NCBI RefSeq assembly: GCF_030144855.1
Contig: NC_082728.1
Span: 38,812,001-38,876,000, forward strand
Direction: 5' to 3'
Length of the DNA stretch: 64,000 nucleotides
Source of the DNA: Hypanus sabinus
Lineage: Eukaryota
Under the pieces are notes generated by a model. The model was given only the letters and a program-made list of their open reading frames with translations, was not told the DNA's origin and did no database searches. How positions within the stretch are numbered: position 1 is the stretch's first letter; every line of letters begins with the position of its first letter. Below, piece by piece: positions 1,748-58,399 of the stretch. The position numbers were made by a program, and so were the translations under genes.

Positions 1748-1893
1748 TACACTTCGTGACCACTTTATTAGGTACCACATGTACCTAACAAAGTGGCCAC
1801 TGAGTGTATGTTCGTGGTCTTCTACTGCTGTAGCCCATCCACTTCAAGGTTTGACGTGTTGTGCGTTCAGAGATGCTCTTCTGCACACCCACT
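1748..1893. mobile_element. Tc1-like MITE fragment beginning with a TIR-TIR hairpin
   Basis: tacacttcgtgaccactttattaggtac (1748-1775) and gtacctaacaaagtggccactgagtgta (1781-1808) are imperfect inverted repeats flanked by TA; they resemble the CACTCAGTGGCCACTTTATTAGGTAC type of Tc1 terminus. Confidence 0.7.
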
Positions 1894-2157
1894 GAGACCA
1901 AAATCCTTGCGGGCAGGTTTTCTAGAGCTGCTTGGGAGGGTTTAAACCAATTTGGCAGGGGAATAGGAACCGGAGTGATAGAGCTGCGAATGGGGTATCA
2001 GTTTACAAACTGAGGCAATGTGTCGTGAGACCACCAGAAAGGACAGGCTGATGATGAGGTAAAATTGCTGTCACTGGGATGAGTTGCAATATAAAAGGGG
2101 GACAAAATCATGAAGAATGATGAATACAGGACTTAAAATATTATATTTGAATGCACA
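1894..2157 (+). mobile_element. CR1 LINE, 5' segment (end of ORF1 esterase and start of ORF2), split by the provirus
   Basis: TKILAGRF-like end of ORF1 (compare 51102-51130); ORF2 start LKILYLNA, whose frame resumes after 6850 as (H)SAQSTLDELVA. Confidence 0.8.
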
Positions 2158-2565
2158 TGATAGGGCATACTCTGGAGTTAGAGCATCGTGCAAACATTTA
2201 CTTCAGCAACCAGTCTTTAGACTGGAATATAGATTGTAAATTAAATTTAAAATGCAGCCCCAGACAAAAGTTTCCTGGAGCTGTGGACACCAGTTAATTG
2301 AAGACCAGACAATGCTGATTAACATTCATTTTGGGTGTCCAGAGTGTGAGAGCAAAGAAGGAGGTGTGAAAATTAAATGTAATTCAAAGCTTTGTAACTA
2401 TAGAATTGTCCTGCTCCAGGAAAATTTGATCCTTAGCTATAAAATATTGTGTAATATTGGGTCAAAAAGGCCTCTTCCTCCAAAAGTGTTTCATTTTGTT
2501 GAATAAAACATTTCTGTACCCACCAGCTTCAGTGTCTCTCTGGTGACTTTGTTCATATTACAACA
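2158..2565 (+). repeat. 5' LTR of the provirus (408 bp)
   Basis: Starts TGAT and ends ACAACA; TATAAAA at 2438-2444 and AATAAA at 2502-2507; aligns by eye with 6483-6845 (e.g. attaaatttaaaatgcagccc...cctggagctgtgga.accagttaattgaa). Confidence 0.88.
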
Positions 2566-2567
2566 TT

Positions 2568-2585
2568 TGGAGGATTGTCCGAGAT
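2568..2585 (+). promoter_or_regulatory. Primer binding site, decayed (tRNA-Pro-like or tRNA-Gln-like)
   Basis: TGGAGGATTGTCCGAGAT starts 2 nt after the LTR; 14/18 identity to the canonical Pro PBS TGGGGGCTCGTCCGGGAT and 14/18 to the Gln PBS TGGAGGTTCCACCGAGAT. Confidence 0.7.
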
Positions 2586-3269
2586 GTCTTGGTGACCCAT
2601 TGTGTGGCCAGCAATCTCAGCACTCTCAGTCTGGGAGTGTTTTTCAACTTAGCATTCATTTTTGGACCTATTCGGGTCACTGACTACGGGGTCAGGAGGT
2701 ATCAGGAAGATGGCAGAGAGCTGAACTAGTAGGTATATAAGTAGTGTGATGTGTGTTCATGAATATGTGTTTATGTAAGAGACTGAACATTTGTGTGTTC
2801 ACTTCGTGAGACGGACCCACCAGTTGCAAAGGGTGGCCACTGACAGTTTGCGATGCCAGTGGAGTGTGTGTACTCGTTCCGGGAACTGTATTTTGCAAAT
2901 GCTTTTGTTAAGAATACATCTGTAACCCTGGTGTAACAGTTTTAAATGCAAAGGAATACAACACACATTAGGAGTTCAGTTGCACATAAGTGGCAGATTG
3001 CAGAGTACGTACTCTGTGATTTAAAGTATCTAGTGTTTAGTTTTTGTCCACATTTATAGTTTGTGGGAGTAAGTGTGGCGATATTTGAGGGAGAGGTTAT
3101 ACCCGAATATATCTGTTGAGATGACACCTATCGAGGTCAGGGAATGACAGGCTGAGAACCCCGATGACCCAAGCCTGTCTTGGACTATAATTACAACCAT
3201 CCTTAAGCCCTTCACGCCAGAGAGAAGCAGAGCATTTTGTCAAAGTTGCCCTCACTCTTAATCACCTGC

Positions 3270-4240
3270 AGGAATGTAGAATTCTGGTTCCAGCTTAAGG
3301 AAATGATTGAAATTCACCAGAAGCACCCTGAAGATATACATGTCTTGGTTAGAGCGAAGTGCCCGAGGAAAATGTGGGACAATATTGCCAAGGGAGTGCA
3401 GGATGGCACATGAGCAACTACCAGGAACGCCAGCAATGAAGAGAGACATCGCTTCATTAAGGTGGAAGTGAGGCAGCGACTGGGGGGAGGTGAGAGCAAC
3501 TGGGGAACAGTAATGTCAGTGGTTCAGAGAGGGAAAGAGCCTACCATGGATTATGCAGAACGTATCGAGCATATGAAGGGTATTCAGGTTTGGATAATCC
3601 AGGGAGGGACAACCCAGTCTTCCTGAAGATGCTGAAGGAAGGCCTGAGCTCAGCTTAGCTGGAAGGTTCAGATTTGTGGACAGCGATGGGATGGACGAAC
3701 TCCACGATAATATCATGGGCTGGTAAGAAAGACCAGAGGAGGGGCAAGAGAAGTCATAAAGTGGCTGTAAGTGAATGTAGCTGCTGTGACCACACAGAGA
3801 ACTTGCTTTGTGTGCCAGCAGTCAGGGAACTGTTGGAATAGATGTGGGAGGGTAAAGGAGGTGATTTGTTACAGCTGTGACTTCTCACACCAAGATGTAA
3901 CACTCAGTGTCATAGGAAGTCATTCCTGCCTGTGGCCATCAAACTTTACAACTCCCCCCTTGGAATGTCGGACACCCTGAGCCAATAGGCTGGTCCGGGA
4001 CTTATTTCCACTTGTCATGATTAACTTATTATTATTTAATTATTTATGGTTTTATATTGCGATATTTCTACACTATTCTTGGTTGGTGTGGCTGTAATGA
4101 AACCCAGTTTCCCTCGGGATCAATAAAGTATGTCTGTCTGTCTGTCTGTCTGTCTGTCAGACCATGGTTAGAGGCAGTGTCCCGAAAAGAGGGCGACGTG
4201 TGTGAAGACCACTCACCTGCACAGCAGGATGCACAGTAGT
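3270..4240 (+). pseudogene. gag: Decayed gag (capsid-like region plus two zinc-knuckle-like motifs)
   Basis: NVEFWFQLKEMIEIHQKHPEDIHVLVRAKCP segment; CFVCQQSGNCWNRC from 3804; second knuckle CYSC...HG*RQC split by an insertion at about 3879-4158; frameshifts and stops. Confidence 0.7.
3879..4158 (+). mobile_element. Rex1-type LINE 3' fragment with (GTCT)n tail inserted in the second Gag knuckle
   Basis: RKSFLPVAIKLYNS-type C-terminus, then gggatcaataaagta followed by a (gtct)n microsatellite tail. Confidence 0.8.
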
Positions 4241-4241
4241 T

Positions 4242-5367
4242 GTGTCTCTTTCTGATATGACCGCTGACCAGATTGCAGAGCTGGTGAGGTCACACAAACA
4301 GCTAATGACAGTCCCTATTGCAAGTGGAGGTCAACCATGGATATACACAGGAGGTTTATTAGGGGACCAGCAATGTGAAGTGTTAGTGGACGCAGGATCC
4401 TCAGTATCAATAACTGATCTACCCTTGCCTATGATTGGAGAGGCAACTTACATTACCAGTACAGGAGGTGAAACAATGAGGGAGGAGAGGAGTCAGCCCA
4501 GGTACTTGAGATTGAGGGAGTGCAGCTTGCTGTAGATTTCTGGGTGTGCCCAGACAATGAAGGTACTGTCCTGGGTAAAGCCAGTGTGATTATAGACTCG
4601 GGAAAAGGAAAAATAACATGGGCAAGACAGGGAGAGCAAACATGGGTGACCTGCAAAGCAGCTAGCACGGGCCACAAAGAGACAGCAGCTCCAGGCAGGG
4701 AGGAGAGACAGGACACTCTGTAGGAATCATGCCAGGAGGTCCCGAGGGCAGGGGCCAAGCACAGCCAGGAGCTGTTTGAAGGAGTGCTGCTGCCTGAGGA
4801 AGTAGCACTGATTGAAGTAAAGGCTCGCCAGAAAGGGGATGGTAAGGAGCAGAAAAGGAACGAGTGGGAAGACGTCAGTGCGAGGAGGGCAGTGAAGCAA
4901 CAGAAATTACAAGTGTACAACTGCCAATTTAATAAGATTACACTGCAGTCAGGTTACCATTGAGGGATCGAGCGAAGCAGCGGCGACATATTGCAGATCA
5001 GAGAGAGCCAGAGGGGGAGAAGATAGTCCTCCCACAGCCAGGTGACCTAGTCAGGTAAGAGAGCTGGTTGAAAGGACGGGGTTCACTCCCAGGTGGATTG
5101 AACCACAGGTGGTGCTCCAGGCGTATTTGTTGGTGTACAGTCCCGACGAGATAGCCAGCAGAAACACCGGACTCGTATGACCTATACCCTCACGGACAGA
5201 GCAAGAGATCCAGTGTACCTGGTAACAAAGTCATTGCGAAGAACTCAAGAGATGAACTCCAGCTGGATGCATCAGACCTGAGCTCAGATGATGGAAGTAG
5301 ACCAACAGAAAACGCGAAGGCAGAGGACACTGGGAGAACGCAACAGCAAACCGAGAATAGCATGTGA
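4242..5367 (+). pseudogene. pol: Deleted pol: aspartic protease joined to RNase H C-terminus and integrase C-terminal domain
   Basis: PWIY...CEVLVDAGSSVSI (DAG codons 4389-4397, one transition from DTG); ELFEGVLLPEEVALIEVKARQKGDGKEQKRNEWEDVSARRA at about 4768-4894; PQPGDLV/ELVERTGFTPRWIEPQVVL at about 5030-5120; no YxDD or DDE core seen. Confidence 0.8.
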
Positions 5368-6086
5368 AGGTGCAATAGTAATGGTACTCTGTTAGCTGTG
5401 TAGTGCAGTACAGAAAAACATTCGGGAAAAACAGATTGAAAGGGATCCAAGTTACAGCAGAGACATCAAGTTCCACAACTTCGATGGCAGGAAGACCGAG
5501 AAAGAAAAGAAATTACATAGAGCATCTGAAGGTTACCCCAACCTGAATGGGGAGTGAGTACAAATGAGCAGGGCCCTTTCAGTGGTTGGGCCAGTGATCA
5601 AATGGACAGTCAGGAAGGGGGTGCCACTAGGCTGTGGGCCTTGCAATCATTCAAATAGGGATCGCCTCAATCTCTTCAGTACATTAATGAGAGGACTTGT
5701 AAGACTGATACATTTACCTTGCTGGTGCCCTGACCAGAGAGAAACCACTGAAAGCCACTGCCCAGTTTTAGATATCAGTAATTGAAGGGTTGAAGATAAA
5801 GAAGGGGATTAAACTGCAATCGGCCAGCAGGGAAGGAGGCAGCAGGCATACGGATGATGAAGCTGCATTTTAAAGACAGTTGGTCAAAGTTCTGGAAGAA
5901 TCTCTTTTTGGAGTCTTGCAGGCAACCATCAGGAATGATTTCATAGAAGTAGATGCACATAGAGTGATTGGGGAAAGGGTTCCGAAGCACGGGGCATTTT
6001 TGCTGTTCTATTTGGTTAGATCCTTGTTCAGGTTTCCTCTTTCCTCAAACAAATTTACTTCTGTCCAGGGCAGTAAAGAGGAGGGA

Positions 6087-6845
6087 TGGTAAGCAAATAG
6101 AAGATCAAAGGTTTCAAAGATACATTTAATGTCAGAGAACTGTATACAATATACATCCTGAAAGTCTTTTCCTTCGCAACCAACCACGAAAACAGAGGAG
6201 TGCCCCAAAGAATGAATGACAGTTAAATGTTAGAACCCCAAAGCCTCCCCAGCTCCCCCCTCCCACACGTAAGCAGCAATAAAGCAACGATCCCCCTCCC
6301 CCTCCAGCAAAAAAAGCATCGGCGCCCCCCCCCCACTGAGCATTCAAGTGTGCAACAAAGCATCAATACAGTCAGAGACTTACAGTTCCCTAAAGACTGC
6401 TCATTCACCTGGTATTCGACATTCCACGGGCTCTCTCTCTCCCTAATAGGGGAAAAAGAGGTGTCGCCATTTCATAGCGAGAGTATAGGGTATATAGCAA
6501 ATGTTTACTTAAGCAACCAAACTTTAGACCTGAACATGGATTGTAGATTAAATTTAAAATGCAGCCCTGGACAATAGTGTCCTGGAGCTGTGGAAACCAG
6601 TTAATTGAAAAACAGAAATGCTGATTAACATGCATTTTGGGTGTCTGGAGTGTGGGTACAAAGAAGGAGATGTAAAAATCATGTGTAATTCAAAGAAAGC
6701 ATTGTAGAAACATTGAGTTGTCCTGATGCTACCTTTGATCTTCAGTGTATAACATATTGGGTCAAACAGTCCTCTGCCTCCAAGAGATCAGTTTGTTGAA
6801 CAAAACACATCTGTATCCTCCGGTGTCTTTGTTCACATCACAACA
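6087..6845 (+). repeat. 3' LTR, interrupted by an insertion at about 6105-6482
   Basis: TG follows the PPT; homology to the 5' LTR resumes at about 6483; ends cacaaca followed by the TSD gcaca. Confidence 0.82.
6105..6482 (-). mobile_element. Non-autonomous retroelement 3' portion with Rex1-like tail, inserted in the 3' LTR
   Basis: tcaaaggtttcaaagatacatttaatgtcagaga...tatacaatatacatcctgaaa resembles the tail at 59225-59310 and the reverse complement of the Rex1 tails at 1560-1640 and 49590-49670. Confidence 0.7.
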
Positions 6846-8850
6846 GCACATAGTGCACAGAGTACGCTAGATGAACTGGTAGCATAGTTACAGAGTGGCA
6901 TGTATGACGCTGTAGGCATCACTGAATCATGGCTGAAAGAAGATTATAGCTGGGAGCTTAACACCCAAGGATACATGCTGTATCAAAAGGACAAGTAGGC
7001 AGAGGGGGTGGGTAGCTCTGCTGGTTAAAAAAAATAAATCAAATCCTTAGAAAGAGGTAGCACAGGATTGGAAGATGTAGATTCCTCATGGGTAGAGCTA
7101 AGAAAACCCTGATGGAAGTTATATACAGGTCCCCAAACAGTGGTAAAGAAATGGGCTACAAATTAGAATGGGAGATAGAAAATGCAATGTGACGACACTC
7201 ATAGGGAGTTTCAATATGCAGGTGGATTGTGAATATCAGATTAGAGCTGGAGCCCAAGAAGGGGAATCTGCAGAATGCCTATGAGATGGCTTTTTAGAGC
7301 AGCTCATGACTGAGCCCACTAGGGGACCAGCTATTCTGGGTTGGGTGTTATGGAATTAACTGGAATTGATCAGAGAGCATAAAGTAATGGAACCCTTCGG
7401 GGTCAGTGACCATAATATGACAGAAATCACCCTGCAATTTGAGAGGGACAAGTTAAAGTCAGATCTAACAGTATTACAGTGGGTAAAGGGAATTGCAGAG
7501 TCATGAGAGACGAACTCACCAAAATTGATTGGAAGTAAACGTTAGCAAGGATGATGGCGGAGCAGCAATGGCTGGAGTTGCTGGGAGCAATTCAGAAGGT
7601 GCAGGATAGACACATCCCAAAAACGAAGAAGAAGCATTCTAAAGGCAGGATACACACTATGACTGACAAGGGAAGTCAAGGCCAACATAAAAGACAAAGA
7701 GAGGGCATATAATAGAGAAAAAAATAGTGGATTCGGAATCTTCTATAAACCAACAGGACGCAACTAAAAAGTTATAAAGAAGGAATATGAAGGTAGCCAA
7801 TAAGAATAATGAGGATACCAAACACTTTTTCAGATATATAAAGTGTAAAAAGAGATACAGGACCAGGAAATGGCGGATGAACTGAATAAGTATTTTGCAT
7901 CAGTCTTCACTATGGAAGTCATTAGCAGTTTGCAGCAAGTTTGAGAGTGTCAGGGGCAGAAGTAAGTGAAGTTGCCAACTAGGGAAAAGAAGTTTGGGAA
8001 ACTGAAAGGTCTGAAGATAGATAAATCACCTGGTCTACCTCAGCTGAAGAGATTGTGGGGGCATAAGTAATGATCTTTCAAGAATCAATAAGTTCTGCCA
8101 TGGTTCCAGAGGACTGGAAAGTCACAAATGTCACTCCACTCTTCAAGAAGGGAGGGAGACAGAAGAAAGGACATCATAGGCCAATTAGCCTGACTTCACT
8201 GGTTGGGAAGATGTTGAATTCAATTGTTAATTGTGTGGTTTCAAGGTAGTTAATGGCTCATGATAAAATAGGTTGAAGTCAGCATGGTTTCCTTAAGGGA
8301 AAATCTTGTTTGACAAATCTGTTGGAATTCTTTGAAGAAATTACATACAGGATAGACAAAGGAGAATCGGTGAATGTTATGTGCTTAGATTTTCAAAAGA
8401 CTTTTGACAAGTTGCCACACATGAGACTGCTTAATAAATTAAGAGTCCATGGTATTGCAGGAAAGATAATAGCTTGGATAAAGCATTGGCTGATCAACAG
8501 GAGGCAAAGAGTGGGAATAAAGGGAGCCTTTTCTGGTTGGCTGCTGCTGACTAGTGGTGTTCCACAGGGGTCAATGTTGGGACCACTTCTTTTTACATTA
8601 TATGTCAATGATTTGGATGACAGAGTTGATGGCTTTGTGTTGAAATTTGTGGACAATACAAAGATAGGTTGAGAGGCAGTTAAATTTGAGGAAGTAGAAA
8701 GGCTACCAGATGATTTAGACAGATTAGGACAAAGAGCAAAAAAGTGACAGATGGAATATAGTGCCATGAGGTGTATGGTCATGCACTTTGGTAGAAGAAA
8801 TAGAAGTGTATACTGTTTTCTAAACAGAGAGAAAATACAAAAATTTGGGA
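6846..8850 (+). mobile_element. CR1 LINE ORF2 (APE endonuclease plus RT), decayed; continuation of 1894-2157
   Basis: VGITESWL, SDHN, PEDWKVTNVTPLFKKG, QHGF, LDFQKTFDKLPH, SGVPQGSMLGPLLF and KFVDNTKIG motifs (ORF 8310-8672). Confidence 0.92.
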
Positions 8851-13149: not shown

Positions 13150-14062
13150 CACAAGTGCAATTATGAAGACAGCATGGCAGTGCCTTTACTTTCGTGGAAG
13201 TTTGCAAAGATTCAGCATGACATCGAAAACTTTGACAAACTTGTAGATGTATGGTGGAAAGAATACTGACTGGCAGCATCACAGCCTGATATGGAAACAC
13301 TAATGCCCTTGAACATAAAATATTGCAAAAAATAGTAGATATGACCCAGTCCACCACATTAAAGCTGTTCCTCTACTGAGCACATCTACACAGAGCAGTG
13401 TCGCAGGAAAGCAGTATCCATCATCGGGGACCCCTCCACCCAGGTCACTGATGCACTATCAATAACTCCAAAAGACTGGAAGTAGAGTAAATACTAAAAG
13501 GATTTTATTAGCAGTAAAATGGAGCACGTCCATGCCGGATGACTGCCCTGGACTGTGGGAGGAGCAGTGATACAATCACCTTTATACAGGAGTCTGTGGG
13601 AGGAGCCACAGGAGCGGTCAGCAGAGGGGCGTGTCCAGACAGGTATACATGGTTTACCACACTCACAGCTGCCATCAGGAAGAAGGAGCAGGAGCCTCAG
13701 GACTTACACGGCCGATTCAAGAACAGTTATTGCTCCACTACCACCAGGATCTTGAACCAAAACGGTTAATTCCACTCAACTACACTTTCGTCATTACTGA
13801 CTGAATTGTTCCCACAATCTACAGACTCACTTTCAAGGACTCTTCATTTTATGCTCTTGATATTTGTTGTTTATTTATTTGTTTATTTTTATTATTGCCT
13901 GTTTTCTTGCACAGATTGTTGTCTTCTGCTCGTTGTCTGTCCGTCCTGTTAATCCTATTGATTCTATTATGGTTTTTGGATTTACGGAGGAAGCCTGCAA
14001 GAAAACATATCTCAGGCTGGTAGACGGTAACATGTATGTGCCTTGATAATAAATTTACTTCG
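13150..14062 (+). mobile_element. Rex1-type LINE 3' portion, interrupted by a solo LTR
   Basis: Homologous to 930-1640 (agcatgacatcgaaaactttgacaaactt..., tail ccttgataataaatttactt). Confidence 0.85.
13449..13661 (-). mobile_element. Gypsy-type solo LTR (213 bp)
   Basis: Minus strand reads TGTGGTAAAC...GTATAAAGG...AATAAAA...GTGCATCA; flanks gtcac (13444-13448) and ctcac (13662-13666) form a 5-bp TSD with one mismatch; the LINE sequence resumes after it. Confidence 0.8.
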
Positions 14063-14087
14063 AAGTACGAAATTTCTCTCCAGACAC

Positions 14088-15636: not shown

Positions 15637-15798
15637 NNNNNNNNNNNNNNNNNNNNNNNNNNNNNNNNNNNNNNNNNNNNNNNNNNNNNNNNNNNNNNNN
15701 NNNNNNNNNNNNNNNNNNNNNNNNNNNNNNNNNNNNNNNNNNNNNNNNNNNNNNNNNNNNNNNNNNNNNNNNNNNNNNNNNNNNNNNNNNNNNNNNNN
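15637..15798. other. Assembly gap (162 N)
   Basis: Run of N bases. Confidence 0.99.
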
Positions 15799-49274: not shown

Positions 49275-49669
49275 GGAGGACTCACACCACCCGGTTCAGG
49301 AACAGGTATTAACCCCTCAGCCATCAGGCTCCTGAACCAAAGGGGATAATTTCACTCAGCTTCACCTGCCCCATTACTGAAATGTTCCCACAACCAATGC
49401 ATCCACTTTCAAGGGCTCCTTATCTCACGTTATTGATATTCATTGCTTATTTATTGATTACTATTATTTCTCTCTTTTTGTATTTGCAGTTTGTTGTCTT
49501 TTGCACACTGGTTGAAGGCTCAAATTGGTGTGCTTTTTCATTGATTCTGTTAGGGTTATTATTCTATAGAATTATTGAGTATGTTTGGAAGGAAATTAAT
49601 CTCAGGGTTGTATATGGTGACATATATGTGCTTTGCTGATAAATTTACTTTGAACTTTTTGAACTTTGA
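49275..49669 (+). mobile_element. Rex1-type LINE 3' end
   Basis: Close match to 1260-1642, including the tail gataaatttactttgaactttttgaactttga. Confidence 0.85.
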
Positions 49670-50880
49670 GATGCCATTAGTATAAGGGAAAAATAAAGAA
49701 TCTTAATAAATGAAGAAGGAAACTATTATGTTGCTTTCAATTAACTGCCAAACATTTGGGTATAATAACATGTTTATACTTTGTTACTGATTCTTGTTAA
49801 AAAGCAGCTGTAAAATTACAGTGCACTTTCACATATTACATGCACAACTGAAATTCATTTACATTTTGATGAAAACTTTCATTTAGCATCTTACCTTCCA
49901 TGTATATTTCTATGACATGTATCTAAAGTTAATCTAGGAAAAAAGAAACTGGCAAAATGCTATCTTATTTACCCAAAAACAAAGTCTCATTATCCATTTA
50001 AGACAGGGTTTACCCTTGGAATGTCATCAAACTGATGAGAACTTTTAGTTGCATAATCTTAAGCAGTTCTGTGTATTATTTAGATTTAAGACTTCTTTGC
50101 AGGTCTACTCAGATAAGCCTCAATACTCCAAGTCATTAATCTTCAGTAAGTACTATTTCTGGTTTAAGATTGCACAGGTGAATCTCAGTGGCTTCTGGGT
50201 GGTTGCTGATGAATCAAGGTAAACAACTAAATACTTTGTTAATCACTCTCTCTGGCAAACAATTATTGCAAGCAATAGTCTGTCACTTCACCTTGGACTT
50301 GGAGATGTTTGGACTGGTGTTGTTTGGGAGAGTGCGAGAGGGCGAGGAAAAGATTTGGTCTGTAGCATCCTTTTGTTCTGTTTTAAATTTTCAATGTAGC
50401 GGTTTATATAACCTTACAGGGGCTGCAAAGGATTTTTTTCTGGTCTATCCCTTGCTTTGGGCGACCAGTTTTTTCATCTTTGCATAAGCAGTGTACTAGC
50501 ACTCACGGAAAAAGAGGCACTTTGCGTGTTTTCAACAAGAAAGCTAGCCGATAATTAGACAGTGGTGAAGTTGTGGGCCGAATGAGGTGGGACCAAAGTC
50601 ACTTTGAGTTATAGTTTACCAGTGCAGAAAGTGAATTGATCAGAAAACGCAAATCTAGAAACTCCAGCAAAGTTTCAAGCACACGTTAGACATTAAGCGT
50701 TACCTGGTATATTGGGAGCAAAGCAGGGATAGTAGTATAAATAGTAGTTTACTTTTAAGAATTTAAATAAATACAATCACATAATCTTGAATAGTTCAGT
50801 AATTCTTCCCCCCCTAAAAGTATAATAATGCAGCCTCTGCAATGTGAGTCTTATTTGTTGAAAACAGACTACCAAGATTC

Positions 50881-53800
50881 AGGAAGAAAGTTGAGAAGCA
50901 GGACCTCAAAAGGTAGTAATCTCAGGATTACTGTCTGTGCCACGTGACAGTGAGTATAGGAGTAGAGTGAGGTGGAGGACAAATGTATGGCTGAGGGATT
51001 GGAGCAGCGGGCAGGGATTCAGATTTCTGGATCTTTGGGACCTCTTTTGGGGCAGGAGTGACCTGTACAAAAAGGGTGGGTTTCACTTGAATCCCAGGGG
51101 GACCAATATCCTGGCGGGAAGGTTTGCTAAGGCTATGGAGTAGAGTTTAAACTAGAATTGCTGGGGGGTGGGAACCGAACTGAAGAGATGGAGGAAGAGG
51201 CGGTTGGCTCACAAATAGAGAAAGCTTGGAGACAGTGCGAGAGGGAGGATAGGCAGGTGATAGAGAAGGGATGTGCTCAGACCGATGTTTGAGATGTGTC
51301 TGTTTTAGTGCAAGAAGCATCATGAACAAAGCAGATGAGCTTAGAGCGTGGATCAGGACTTGGAGCTATGATGTTATGACCATCACAGAGGCTTGGATGG
51401 CTCAGGGGCAGGAAGAGCTACTTCAAGCACCAGGCTTTAGATGTTTCAGAAAAGACAGGGATGGAAGCAAAAGAGACAGGGGCATAGCATAGAGGGATCA
51501 GAGATAGTGTCACGGCTGCAGAAAAGGAGGAAGTCATGGAGGGATTGTCTACCGATTCTCTGTGGGTGGTAGTTAGGAACAGGAAGGGGTCAATAATTCT
51601 ACTGGGTGTTTTTTATAGACCACCCAATAGTAACAGGGACATTGAGGAGCAGATAGGGAGACAGATTCTGGAAAGGTGTAATAATAACGTGGTGGGAGAT
51701 TTTAATTTCCCAAATATTGATTGGTATCTCTCTAGAGCAAGGGGTTTAGATGGAGTGGAGTTTGTTAGGTGTATTCAGGAAAATTTCCTGACACAATATG
51801 TAGATAAGCCTACAAGAGGAGAGGCTGTACTTGATCTGGTATTGGGAAATGAACCTGGTCAGGTGTTGGATCTGTCAGTGGGAGAGCATTTTGAAGATAA
51901 TGATGACAATTCTATCTCCTTTACCATAGCATTGGAGAGGGATAGGAACAGACAAGTCAGGAAAGCGTTTAATTGGAGTAAGGGGAAATATGAAGCTATC
52001 AAGCAGGAACTTGGAAGCATAAATTGGGAACAGATGTTCTCTGGGAAATGTGCGGCAGAAATGTGGCAAATGTTCAGGGCATATTTGCATGTTGTTCTGC
52101 ATTGGTATGTTCCACTGAGACAAGGAAAGGACGGTAGGGTACAGGAACTGTGGTGTACAAAGGCTGTTGAAAATCTAGTCAAGAAGGAAAGAAAAGCTTA
52201 CAAAACGTTGAAAAAAATAAGGTAATGATAGAGATCTAGAAGATTATAAGGCTAGCAGGAAGGAGCTTAAGAATGAAATTAGGAGAGCCAGAAGGGGCCA
52301 TGAGAAGGCTTTGGTGAGCAGGATTAAGGAAAACCTCAAGGCATTCTACAAGTATGTGAAGAGCAAGAGGATAAGACATGAGAGAATAAGACCAATCAAG
52401 TATGACAGAGAAGTATGTATGGAACGGGAAGAGATAGCAGAGGTACTTATTGAATTTTGCTTCAGTGCTCACTATGGAAAAGGATTTTGGCAATTGTAGG
52501 GATGACTTACAGTGGATTGAAAAGCTTGAACATATAGACTTTAAGAAGAGGATGTGCTGAAGCTTTTGGAAAGCATCAAGTTGGATAAGTCACCGGGACC
52601 AGACGAGATGTACCCTAGATGACTGTGGAAGGCGAAGGAGGAGACTGCTGAGCCTCTGGCAATGATATTTGCATCATCAATGGGGAAAGGAGAGGTTCCA
52701 GAGGATTGGAGGGTTGCAGATGTTGTTCCCTTCTTCAAGAAAGGGAGGAGAGATAGCTTGGGAAATTACAGACCAGTGAGTCTTACTTCAGTGGTTGGTA
52801 AACTGATGGAAAAGATCCTGAGAGGTAGGATTTATGAACATTTGGAGAGGCATAATATGATTAGGAATAGTCAGCATGGCTTTGTCAAAGGCAACTTGTG
52901 CCTTACGAGCCTGATTGAATATTTTGAAGATGTGACTAACCACATTGATCAAGGTAGAGCAGTAGTGTATATGGATTTCAGCAAGGCATTTGATGAGGTA
53001 CCCCATGCAAGGCTTATTGAGAGAGTAAGGAGGCATGGGATCCATGGGGACATTGCTCTGTGGATTCAGAAGGCAAAGAGCGGTTGTAGACAGGTCATAT
53101 TCTGCATGGAGGTCGGTGACCAGTGGTGTGCCTCATGGATCTGTTCTGGGACCCCTTCTCTTTGTGATTTTTTTAAATGACCTGGATGAGGAAGTGGTGG
53201 AATGGGTTAGTAAATTTGCTGATGACGTAAAGGTTGGAGGTGTTGTGAATAGTGCGGAGGGCTGTCAAAGGTTACAGTGAGACATTGATAGCAAAAATGG
53301 GCTGAGAAGTGGTAGATGGTTCACCCCAGATAAGTGTGAAGTGGTTCATTTTGGTAAGTCAAATATCATGGCAGAATATAGAATTAATGTCAAGACTCTT
53401 GGCAGTGTGGAGGATCAGAGGGATCTTGGGGTCCGTGTCCATAGGACACTCAAAGCTACTGCGCATGTTGACTCTGTGGTTAGGAAGGCATATGGTGCAT
53501 TGGCCTTCATCAAGTATTGGAATTGAGTTTAAGAACCAAAAGGTAATGTTACAACTGTGTAGGACCCTGGCTGGACCCCACTTGGAGTATTGTGCTCAGT
53601 TCTGGTCACCTCACTACAGGAAGGATGTGGAAGCTATAGAAAGGGTGCAGAGGAGATTTACAAAGATGTTGCCTGGATTGGGGAGCATGCCTTATGAGAA
53701 TAGGTTGAGTGAACTTGGCCTTTTCTGCTTGGAGTGACAGAGGATGAGAGGTGTATAAGATGATGAGAGGCATTGACCATGTGGATAGTCTGAGGGTTTT

Positions 53801-54022
53801 TCCCAGGGCTGAAATGGCTAGAGTGCATAGAATAGGCTGCCATTGACAGTGGTGGAGGAGGATACAATAGGGTCTTTTAAGAGACCCCTGAACAGGTACA
53901 TGGAGCTCAGAAAAATAGAGGGATATGGGTAACCCTAGGTAATTTCCAAAGTAAGCATGTGTTTGGCACAGCATTGTGGGCTGAAAGACTTGTATTGCGC
54001 TGTAGGTTTTCTATGTTTCTAT
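50881..54022 (+). mobile_element. CR1 (HER1-like) LINE, near full length: ORF1 esterase C-terminus plus ORF2 APE-RT, decayed
   Basis: FRFLDLWDLFWG..LYKKGGFHLNPRGT (ORF1); [67 protein letters not shown] and KFADD motifs; tail ttctatgtttctat. Confidence 0.95.
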
Positions 54023-54059
54023 ATTTTATATTCAGATTCATGGAAACTTGCTCCCTGGA

Positions 54060-57000
54060 GAGTTCATATGCGAGAAATTCCAGCTAATCCAACTCCACAG
54101 AAACAAGGTGGCTGACCTTGAAGAGGAGATAGCTGACCTGCAATGTTGTGGAGAATTGCCAGATGTCCTTTACAGAGACAGTGTGCACCCTCAGAGAGCC
54201 ACAGGTTAATACTCCAGACCAGAAAGGAAGAAACAGGTGGGTAACTGTAGGAAGGAAACACAGGGTAAGAGGCTCACACTTTCCAGGAGCATCAACCCCA
54301 GAGTTCTGAGTGTCTAGCAATGTTCGACAATGACCGTGAAAGTTCTGAAGTGGTAGGCAGAAGAGAAGAGTCCCACAGGACCCTCTCTAATCCTAAACTT
54401 AAACCCCATAAAAAGGAAGTAGCGATAGTAGAGGACTCAATTATCAGGGGAGTTGAGGATAATGCATGTAAGGACAAGGAGATTCATACGGTGTGTTACC
54501 TACCAGGAACACCTCCCTGGACAAGTAGATAAGCTCCTGACCAGAGCTGGGGTGGATCCAGTAGTCACTGCCCACATTGGAACAAATGACCTAGGTATGG
54601 GCAGGCATTCAGTTCTGCAAGACAAATTTAAAGAGTTACGTGGAAAGTTTAGGGCATAACTGACAAAGTGGTCTTATTGGAAGTTCTGCCTGTGCCACAT
54701 GCCAGTCCAGGTAAGGTGGAGGAAATTAGAAGATATAATGCGTGGCTCAAATCACGGTGTAGGTTAGACGGGCATAGGTTTGTGGGGCATTGGGGTGCCT
54801 GCTGGGGCAGATGAATCTGTACTGCCAGGATGGGTTGCATTTGAACCAGAGGGGCACCGGTGTACTGGGCAGGCATATGAATCAATTAGTTGAGGACTGT
54901 TTGAACCAGGGAATGGGGGGAGGGGCAGGGGTCAGGGAACTTAGAATAGGTTGGGCCCAACTGTTTGAACACCTTAATAGTGAATAACATATTAGGACAT
55001 AAAGTGATTATAGGCTTCAAAAATATAGAAGTAGGAATAGGATGAAAAACATCAGTAATAGACTAAGCATGGCCTGTGTAAATGCAAGTATTGAGAATAA
55101 ACTAAACCAGTTGGAATTATATGCAAGTGCATGTAACATGATATAATAGCGATAACAGAAATCTGGCTGGCCTCAAAGGATGGTGATGAATATAGGATTA
55201 AAGGATATACTTTACTTAGGAAAGATAGACAAGATTGTAAAGCTGGATGAGTGGTCATATACACGAGAGAATGTAAATGTGAGGTTGCTTATGGAAAGGA
55301 TGAATCGAGACTTAGTGAAGAAATCTGGGTGAGAATCAAAAGCTATAAGGATAAAGGAATAATCTGGGTGTGTGTTATAGACCCCACCCCCACCCCCCAT
55401 GCTGATAGTGATTTTATCGAACAACTCTATCAGAATATCTAAAAAAGCAAGTTCTGAGGGTTATGTTATAGTTATGGGTGACTTTACTTACCCAAATATT
55501 GAGTGGGAGAACCCAGTGACTAATGGTTACAGGAAAGTGAATTCACTGAGTGATTGAGTAATTGTTTTTTGACTCAGTGTGTTAATGCACCAACAAGAGA
55601 AGAGGCCTGTCTAGATCTGATAGTCTTCAACAATCAGGACAGAATTTTGAGTACAGAAATTGTTGAGCCTTTAGGAACAAGTGATCATAACATTGCTAGT
55701 CTCAGTTTTTTTTTGGGAGAGTATGTCAGTAAAAAACTGAATTTGAATTGAATCTCAGAAAGGCAAAGTTTGTGCAGATGTGCCAAAGACCTCAGCAGGT
55801 AAACTGGAAGTAACTACTTGACGTTGAATCAATTGAGGAACAATAGGGTCAATTAAGGAGGTAATACACTGAGTGCAGGAATTGTTCATACCCAAGGTTG
55901 GAAGAAGCAATAAAAAATCGATCAACTGCATGGATGAAGGAACATATACATAAAAACATTGCAGAAAAGACAGCTATATAAGGAATACAGAAGAAATAGT
56001 AATGATGTTAACCACATAGCATATGAAAATATAAGAGCTATAGTCAAGAGGGAAATTCAGATTGCCAAAAGGCAGGTTGGGAAGGATTTTGCTGATGATG
56101 CTAAGATTTCAATATTTTAGAGATAAAAGAAAAAGTCAAGGAGGAAGTTAAGTGTATTAGGAATAATAATGTGGGGTTAAATTATGCAGAGAAGGACATA
56201 GCAGACACTCTTAACTCATATTTTGCTTAACTGTTCACCTGCGAAGATGCTAGCAAAATGCCAGTAAGTGTAGAGAAAAAAAAAGTTGTTTTAAGTGACT
56301 TAGAGATCTAAGAAAGTGAAGTCCTGCTTCAGCTGAAAAGACTGAAAGTTAATAAATCTCCAGGGCCAGACAATATATATCCAAGAGTACTTAAAGAGGT
56401 CTGTGATTATATATACAAAGCTCTAACATGTTATTTTCAAAAGTCCGTGAAGACTAGTGAAATCCCTAAGGACTGGAAATGGGTTAATGTTGTCCAAGTA
56501 TATAAAATGGTTGACAGTACTAATCCTGCTAACTCTAGATCAGTAAGCTTAACATGTATCGTAGGCAAGATGATGGAAACAATAACAAAAACTGAGATGT
56601 TAATGTAGATGATAAGAACAAGCCTGTTTTCAGAAAGCCAGCATGGGTTCAGAAAGGAGAAATCATGTTTTACTAATATGCTGGAGTCCTGTGAAGAGGC
56701 AACTAAAATTTATGATAACAATAGAGCGGTTGATAACATTTACTTGGACTTTCAGAAGGCTTTTGACAAGATACCCCACTAGAGACTAATAACTAAATTA
56801 CAGGAGATGTGCAAATGGGCGCTGAATTAGCTCAAAAACAGAAAATAAGTCATGGTGGGAGGATTATTTTCACACCTAGAAGATGTTAAAAGTGGGGTTC
56901 TGCAGGGATCGGTTTTGGGGCCACTATTGTTTTTAATTTACATTAATGATTTGGATAAGCACATAACAAATAAACTAGTAAGTTTGCTGATGACACAAAA

Positions 57001-57823: not shown

Positions 57824-58292
57824 CCGATGTGGCAGAACCGAGACAAGGCGAGGCAGCGGGCCCATTGACGAGAGTGAAGAAGACTGGAAGTTCAATCAAT
57901 TTAAATGCGAGAGGTCAAATTGAGATAGTGGGGTCCAGGAGCAAGGTGAATCGAAGCGACTGAACCCAACGTTTGGATGGTGATTTGGGCACTGGCTGAG
58001 ATTGGAAAGGACAGGATGTTGAGGCCTGAGGCAGGAGAAGGCCGGTTCAGCTCACTACACTGTGACATTTCCTCAGCTCTTCGCTGAACCATGGACCTCA
58101 CTCAGACTCTGTTTGTGGACTTCAGTTCAGAACACAGTTTGCTTGTAGTTATTGTTTGCATGATTTATTCTTTTTTTTCTTTCCTCTACGCATTAGGGTG
58201 TTTGACAGACTTTTTTTACGGGTTCTTTTGGGTTTCTTTGCCTTATGGCTGCTCTTAGGAGACAAATCTCAAGGTTCATAATGTATACATAC
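57824..58292 (+). mobile_element. Non-autonomous retroelement with Rex1-like tail
   Basis: Ends ...gggttcttttgggtttctttg...aatctcaaggtt...tactttgataacaaatttactt, similar to the Rex1 tails in the window. Confidence 0.6.
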
Positions 58293-58399
58293 TTTGATAA
58301 CAAATTTACTTCGGAATTTTTCCTCTCCATTAACATAAATTGGGTTAATTTGGTGACTTTATCAAATAAAAACTATACTGTAACTATGATCAAAGGTAG

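Follow-up and report, generated by a model that had tools for sequence, protein, structure and literature searches.

A decayed, internally deleted provirus within a CR1-type LINE of Hypanus sabinus, likely related to snakehead retrovirus

The insertion and its boundaries

The 64,000 nucleotides of Hypanus sabinus analysed here (contig NC_082728.1, positions 38,812,001 to 38,876,000; this whole stretch is the window, numbered from its first letter) carry at 2153..6850 a retroviral insertion, real but long dead and internally deleted. Its layout runs from a long terminal repeat (LTR) through a primer-binding site (PBS), gag, protease, a truncated pol and a polypurine tract (PPT) to a second LTR. 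Two deletions have affected pol, two repeats were later nested in the element, and dozens of related contigs occur in other sequencing runs. All features described lie on the forward strand, except for one nested repeat (6104..6481) to which no strand is assigned. Twenty runs from 11 organisms contain part of the stretch, and the evidence on copies comes from the contigs of four of them.

The element is bracketed by a perfect GCACA target-site duplication (TSD), at 2153..2157 on the left and 6846..6850 on the right. Its length is exactly 5 bp, as the initial annotation had read it: 4, 6 or 7 bp yield no direct repeat at the element ends, and two random 5-mers of the window agree by chance with P=0.0014. 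The host sequence is a long interspersed nuclear element (LINE) of CR1 type. Its left part (1890..2152) matches a LINE copy near 51.1 kb (tblastx, E=0.002), and its right part (6851..8400), belonging to open reading frame (ORF) 2, matches the start of ORF2 in the other LINE copy of the window (tblastx, E=4e-48), a reference copy in which Pfam recognizes endonuclease and reverse transcriptase (RT). One flank translates as LKILYLNAH, the other as AHSAQSTLDELVA. Sequencing-run assemblies also contain CR1 contigs free of the insert, with joints 2153>6868 and 2155>6879. These joints and the flank alignments bear out the proposal that removing the element restores a CR1 reading; together with the duplication and the matching LTR ends, they indicate one true integration.

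The 5′ LTR occupies 2158..2565 (408 bp, TG...CA, AATAAA at 2502). The 3′ LTR (6087..6845) has an uncertain start, either at 6087, in which case it includes a nested repeat, or at 6462; its homology to the 5′ LTR is plain from about 6482 onwards. Comparing sequences gives 7/17 matches for either start, a score equalled by 32% of TG-starting 17-mers; a further count gave 17/28. Both LTRs end in the hexamer ACAACA, at 2565 and 6845. Over 352 gap-free columns their identity is 83%; the Kimura two-parameter distance is 0.195, and the alignment shows 43 gap columns and 32 transitions to 28 transversions. The claim of intact boundaries with paired TG...CA LTRs thus holds for the outer ends, but the LTRs are only 83% alike and the inner end of the second is uncertain.

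A decayed PBS, presumably pairing through its 18-mer with tRNA-Gln, follows the 5′ LTR at 2568..2585; no tRNA gene was found in the 64-kb window for comparison. By eye, 14 of its 18 positions agree with those of the PBS in CmiERV scaffold 324 of the elephant shark (Han, 2015; PMC4422223; published work is cited here and below from extracts), so that the PBS noticed at the outset stands, likely as a tRNA-Gln type. The likely PPT is a purine run at 6075..6086, immediately 5′ of TG. A second purine run, at 6448-6461, likely belongs to the nested high-copy repeat whose approximate ends, drawn from depth bins and the joints 6243>6432 and 6258>6431, are 6104 and 6481. Read depth in the bin 6093-6283 exceeds that of the preceding bin about 1000-2900-fold in 4/4 runs, and joints tie 6432-6466 to the nested repeat, which makes 6075-6086 the likely PPT. 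The PPT of the initial annotation is therefore likely present, though not as the second run. The first part of this nested repeat is linked by contigs to a repeat near 1814 (joint 6179>1814).

Remnants of gag and pol

The capsid region of gag (3201..3781), interrupted by stops and by a frame change near 3560, is recognizable by blastx against a Gag-RT protein of Heterodontus francisci, P0003 (35%, E=1e-25), a Gag-protease protein of Mobula hypostoma, P0002 (59%, E=4e-24), and a Caretta Gag, P0004. Two Cys-His knuckles follow, both damaged. In the first (3804..3845; sequence reading and blastx) the His position is substituted. The second (3867..4180), matching residues 125-168 of P0002 with E=0.003, now consists of two parts (3867-3878 and about 4163-4180), split by the insertion of a LINE-like 3′ tail that is present in high copy and ends in (TGTC)7 (3888..4158; recognized by depth, loose ends at 3888 and a match to protein P0008). 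The two Gag knuckles first described are thus present as remnants in the window, whereas two intact ones are found only in the relatives P0002 and P0003.

The aspartic protease (4341..4630) has an altered active-site triad and a frame change near 4500; it is 55% identical to P0002 over 60 aa and 52% to P0087 over 40 aa. A stub of the RT N-terminus (4631..4756) aligns continuously with residues 24-126 of P0090 up to a deletion junction near 4756, where RT, the tether and the greater part of RNase H have been lost, the frame passing from the first RT residues to the RNase H tail (4757..4915). That tail had been read as retroviral, of gamma or epsilon style. It is of class I type, judged from its best blastx match (E=6e-6) among 181 proteins compared and from the RNase H tree discussed below. 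Beyond it lies a probable C-terminal tail of integrase (5010..5130), the core being deleted; the claim that this tail is of retroviral type receives a weak match at the expected place (best E=0.13, to P0092 and P0090), but no GPY/F motif. RT and the integrase core are thus both missing, through two deletions in pol, which the initial annotation did not say outright.

In the decayed 3′ internal region (5131..6074) no env of any kind was detected, including one like the Mononegavirales fusion protein by which lokiretroviruses are recognized: Pfam found 0 families in 3/3 frames, and blastx no match to virus ORFs. Nor did Pfam find a retroviral family in any of the 17 stop-free pieces, in P0001, or in nine items from element and flanks, a blank explained by the decay of the copy. 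Used as sole query, the RNase H piece retrieved 0 of 50 candidates.

Copies, spread and sharing between hosts

Many separate contigs cover the LTR and the internal region; in three runs, for example, 42-66 contigs carry a different letter at 3510. Among the 32 pieces listed are two contigs of paralogues, X1 record 6 and X4 record 23, which are about 84% alike and span the 4756 junction without an RT-sized insert. Since the deletion is common to paralogues, the element likely spread as a non-autonomous copy. The insertion itself can be followed as well. One contig (X1 record 1) spans the left junction with zero differences, and another, from a different organism (X3 record 16), spans the junction of 3′ LTR and CR1 with 10 other letters in 303. 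The presence of the right junction in another organism means that the insertion is likely older than a split between host species.

Relatives of the element

The window copy lacks RT, and its placement therefore runs through relatives. A phmmer search of 1.84 billion proteins with a one-frame reading of gag and protease gave seven matches, six of which are Gag or Gag-Pol proteins of the same kind: P0002, the best relative (E=6e-23), P0003, P0004 and three Gag pieces. The seventh was to the nested LINE. With a Mobula protein as best relative, the elasmobranch genome read at the outset is likely right, the host being likely a batoid. Starting from the RT of P0003, Mustelus proteins (P0085 cluster) and other Pol proteins were reached at 55-56%, and teleost endogenous retroviruses (ERVs) at 37-45%. 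Compared with 60 Pol sequences, the window protease scores first with P0002 (71 bits) and second with P0087 (51), against 23 for snakehead retrovirus (SnRV) and 20 for the murine leukaemia virus (MLV) type. The search with P0090 found no relative in viral contigs and a single distant locus (26%) in metagenomes.

These relatives are retroviral. Pfam finds in them RT, tether and second RNase H, their RT scores 216 bits with gamma RT against 115 with Ty3, and they possess a GPY/F-like motif. Their affinities divide along the genome. In hhalign the Gag profile of the family pairs with that of SnRV (91.5%, E=8e-7), and blastp of Gag gives E=2e-8 to SnRV, against 0.26 or worse to gamma Gag; in BLAST, Gag and RT find SnRV best, RNase H and integrase find gamma. 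An acidic motif, DW..L..EA..Y, was seen by eye 5′ of the capsid in P0003, SnRV Gag, CmiERV lineage I and the whale shark element Rh_ty_ERV2, and may mark SnRV-related Gag.

Placement among retroviruses

Exogenous references were drawn from viral contigs. We take L002 (10,688 nt) to be SnRV and L030 to be walleye dermal sarcoma virus (WDSV), from their length and layout; lokiretroviruses were assigned from their lamprey host and tree position. The RT tree holds 58 sequences. Eight partial or duplicate sequences and five without a match are left out of the RNase H tree, 16 out of the integrase tree and 20 out of the tree of RT plus tether. In the RT tree the shark trio (support 99/96) belongs to a nine-member fish clade (95/91), with lokiretroviruses, foamy viruses and Gypsy outside the fork in which this clade stands. 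The gamma clade (99/93 for RT, 100/100 for RT plus tether) leaves out the shark sequences. In approximately unbiased (AU) tests, uniting the shark clade with the SnRV group was not rejected on RT (p=0.208) or on RT plus tether (p=0.276), nor was the shark pair with SnRV on integrase (p=0.148). On RT, union with epsilon (WDSV-type sequences) was rejected at p=0.0001 and union with lokiretroviruses at p=0.02; lokiretroviral RNase H groups with foamy viruses, and that of the element's lineage does not.

Set against what had first been proposed, these results bear out a retroviral rather than a Gypsy origin: the relatives' RT falls outside the Gypsy clade, and a retroviral RNase H tail survives in the window. 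They likewise agree with a basal lineage outside gamma and epsilon, and speak against two of the identities then offered for it, epsilon-like and lokiretrovirus-like. Two further candidates were set aside. A foamy-like element (clade Tu) disagrees with the RT position, with the Cys-His knuckle remnants and with a TSD of 5 rather than 4 bp, and a gammaretrovirus-like one (clade Jin) with the shark sequences falling outside the gamma clade in both the RT tree and that of RT plus tether.

The third identity offered, a new lineage, is unlikely. Xu et al. (2018; PMC6001957) place the whale shark consensus Rh_ty_ERV4 next to turtle and cyprinid ERVs in the clade Huo block of their S2 Fig. By eye, its protease start agrees with P0002 at 23/26 positions and with the window at 15/26, its RT core with P0087 at 75/98, and it shares a short helix before the protease; its first 400 bases hold the tail of one knuckle and the whole of a second. 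It differs in host and family, and the window copy lacks RT and the integrase core. At the level of the lineage, the element thus likely corresponds to an ERV already catalogued in that genome survey, and this copy would add detail rather than a new lineage. The family may already be named in Repbase or in the supplements of papers. In the extract of Xu et al. (2018) the text discusses neither knuckles nor TSD, and in the literature searched, as far as the extracts go, we found no description for this lineage of TSD length, PBS type or a non-autonomous ray subfamily.

Chong et al. (2014; PMC4299795) give ERV1 a 4-bp TSD and one or two zinc fingers, and ERV3 and ERV4 a 5-bp TSD and none; ERVs related to SnRV and Ovex1 are left unclassified, some with a zinc finger or GPY/F. 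In that scheme no class from ERV1 to ERV4 joins a 5-bp TSD to two knuckles, a combination that does fit the unclassified, SnRV-related grade. The contrast drawn at the outset, 4-bp TSDs and one knuckle for the gamma type and 5 bp for ERV-L, holds for TSD lengths (4 nt for foamy and gamma, PMC5210030; 5 bp for ERV-L and XtERV-S, PMC8278194), but not for knuckles, as ERV1 may have one or two zinc fingers (PMC4299795). The ERV3/ERV4 elements (ERV-L, XtERV-S, crocodilian ERV4) share the 5-bp TSD, and XtERV-S also has many internally deleted copies, but they lack zinc fingers and GPY/F, in contrast with the two knuckles of this lineage and the GPY/F-like motif of its relatives. Class I (gamma/epsilon, ERV1) shares the RNase H and integrase type, and differs in that the relatives' RT lies outside its clade, their Gag is SnRV-like, and the TSD is 5 rather than 4 bp. 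SnRV, similar in the Gag capsid and the best exogenous match for the relatives' Gag and RT, has one knuckle, another PBS, env and 3′ ORFs, and an RNase H and integrase that branch elsewhere. Among the elephant shark elements (Han, 2015), those of lineage I are related to SnRV and resemble this family in their RT motifs; lineage II has the same Gln-type PBS. By eye, however, each has one knuckle, and no likeness is evident in the LTRs. The RNase H of lineage I resembles frog and coelacanth sequences, the RT of lineage II is epsilon-like, and neither lineage, judged by eye, is this family.

The explanation that we prefer, with a probability of about 0.72, is that of a decayed provirus with a 5-bp TSD in a CR1 LINE, devoid of RT and integrase core, likely of an SnRV-related lineage that includes Rh_ty_ERV4, and likely spread non-autonomously. 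A deleted RNA that kept the LTRs, PBS, PPT and packaging region would have been reverse-transcribed from a tRNA-Gln primer. A complete relative would have provided RT and integrase in trans, the latter enzyme making the 5-bp stagger. The copy would then have been fixed before several host species split; its decay since then would have been neutral, and nothing points to a function today.

Several points weigh against it. Placement passes through successive relatives, at 35% for Gag (to P0003) and 29-55% for protease, and the TSD length of the lineage comes from the single copy at 2153-6850 (n=1). The likeness of Rh_ty_ERV4 was judged by eye, outside the trees, and its position in Huo is one of tip order, not of branches. 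ERV-L and ERV-S are absent from all trees. The RT tree contains no clade of shark and SnRV sequences: the fish clade, the SnRV group and class I plus II all arise from one open fork. With the tether added, a seven-member clade becomes sister to the class I side (93/95). RNase H places the lineage with the class I type (99/96), and in the integrase tree it takes a basal position relative to class I (95/92 and 96/95), SnRV integrase being elsewhere; holding the lineage with the SnRV group and lokiretroviruses on integrase gives p=0.036 in the AU test. Finally, a distance of 0.195 between the LTRs is large, and may mean that they belong to two subtypes.

Two observations on Pol belong beside these trees. 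The fish ERV Pol cluster P0028 (3937 NCBI members), near Danio Gag-Pol P0276, stands below class I on a branch of its own in the trees of RT, integrase and RT plus tether alike. In the SnRV-type Pol (L002, 2194-6390) RNase H and integrase are separated by an additional domain, and in Sparus Pol P0050 one lies between protease and RT; from HxT/S motifs we take both to be putative 2H phosphoesterases.

Competing explanations

The tree results just listed are those expected if the lineage stood outside a monophyletic Huo, as sister to class I (gamma, epsilon and ZFERV/SSSV-like fish ERVs), having kept a Gag like that of SnRV, two knuckles and a TSD of 5 bp together with RNase H and integrase of class I type. 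The division of the BLAST matches, gamma for RNase H and integrase and SnRV for Gag and RT, also suits this explanation, with which identity of the lineage with Rh_ty_ERV4 is compatible. Yet union with the SnRV group is not rejected on RT or on RT plus tether, nor is shark pair plus SnRV on integrase. Moreover, RNase H and integrase have been replaced repeatedly among retroviruses, and RNase H group III spans nearly all those that are neither foamy nor lentiviral (Wang and Han, 2021; PMC7947760), so that a gamma-like RNase H is not diagnostic. Sampling is sparse, and the trees are unstable, as seen when lokiretroviruses move inside the SnRV group once the tether is added. We therefore regard a position outside Huo as the less probable alternative, if a substantial one; that the whole shark, ray, teleost and turtle lineage combines this sister position with all of the traits named is a little more doubtful still.

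The second alternative concerns age. If the two LTRs were different subtypes, brought together by gene conversion or template switching, the element would be younger than a divergence of 0.195 suggests. The 43 gap columns and a transition to transversion ratio near 1 are in keeping with this, and the bin 6666-6856 is about 7-11 times less deep than the matching 5′ LTR bin in 4/4 runs. Moreover, the shark rate of 2.2e-10 assumed by Han (2015) would mean about 440 My, which is too old. On the other hand, the perfect TSD and continuous CR1 speak for one insertion, and the heavy decay of all reading frames, the two nested repeats and the orthologue-like contigs of other organisms speak for real age. 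A mixture of subtypes seems to us rather unlikely; dating by LTR divergence was rejected as unreliable.

An epsilon-like element (clade Mu, ERV1) with an atypical TSD would account for the class I-type RNase H tail, for a Gln-type PBS like that of the epsilon-like CmiERV scaffold 324 (PMC4422223) and, since ERV1 can have one or two zinc fingers, for the knuckles (PMC4299795). It is nevertheless quite improbable: the AU test on RT largely refutes it for the relatives, their Gag is SnRV-like, the WDSV-type reference has one knuckle, and ERV1 TSDs are usually 4 bp (PMC4299795).

A decayed 3′ region with no env found would suit a lokiretrovirus or an ordinary Gypsy element, and 5-bp TSDs and two knuckles occur in Gypsy elements too, but the domain content and RT scores of the relatives, an RT position away from both groups, the AU rejection and the foamy affinity of lokiretroviral RNase H make either highly improbable.

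Other features of the window

The second CR1-type LINE, at 50800-56800, is less decayed than the host copy, with an endonuclease frame at 51488-52225, an RT frame at 52623-53180 and a strong GC skew. Directly left of the host LINE lies a very high-copy repeat (1502-1889), with further copies at 13965-14075, 49530-49669 and 58284-58319; opposite-strand joints near 1780-1821 suggest that it has terminal inverted repeats. An assembly gap of 162 N occupies 15637-15798.

Significance

The copy at 2153-6850 contributes defined boundaries, the length of a TSD, the type of PBS and evidence for a non-autonomous subfamily in rays. As an insertion shared between organisms, it could also act as a phylogenetic marker among host species. 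Should a sister position to class I be confirmed, the lineage would establish in which order knuckle number, TSD length and Gag type changed at the origin of gamma- and epsilonretroviruses. In that case the 4-bp stagger of the gamma type would be derived from a 5-bp ancestor without replacement of the integrase, clade Huo would be a grade, and the lineage would be the natural comparison for what sets the stagger of integrase.

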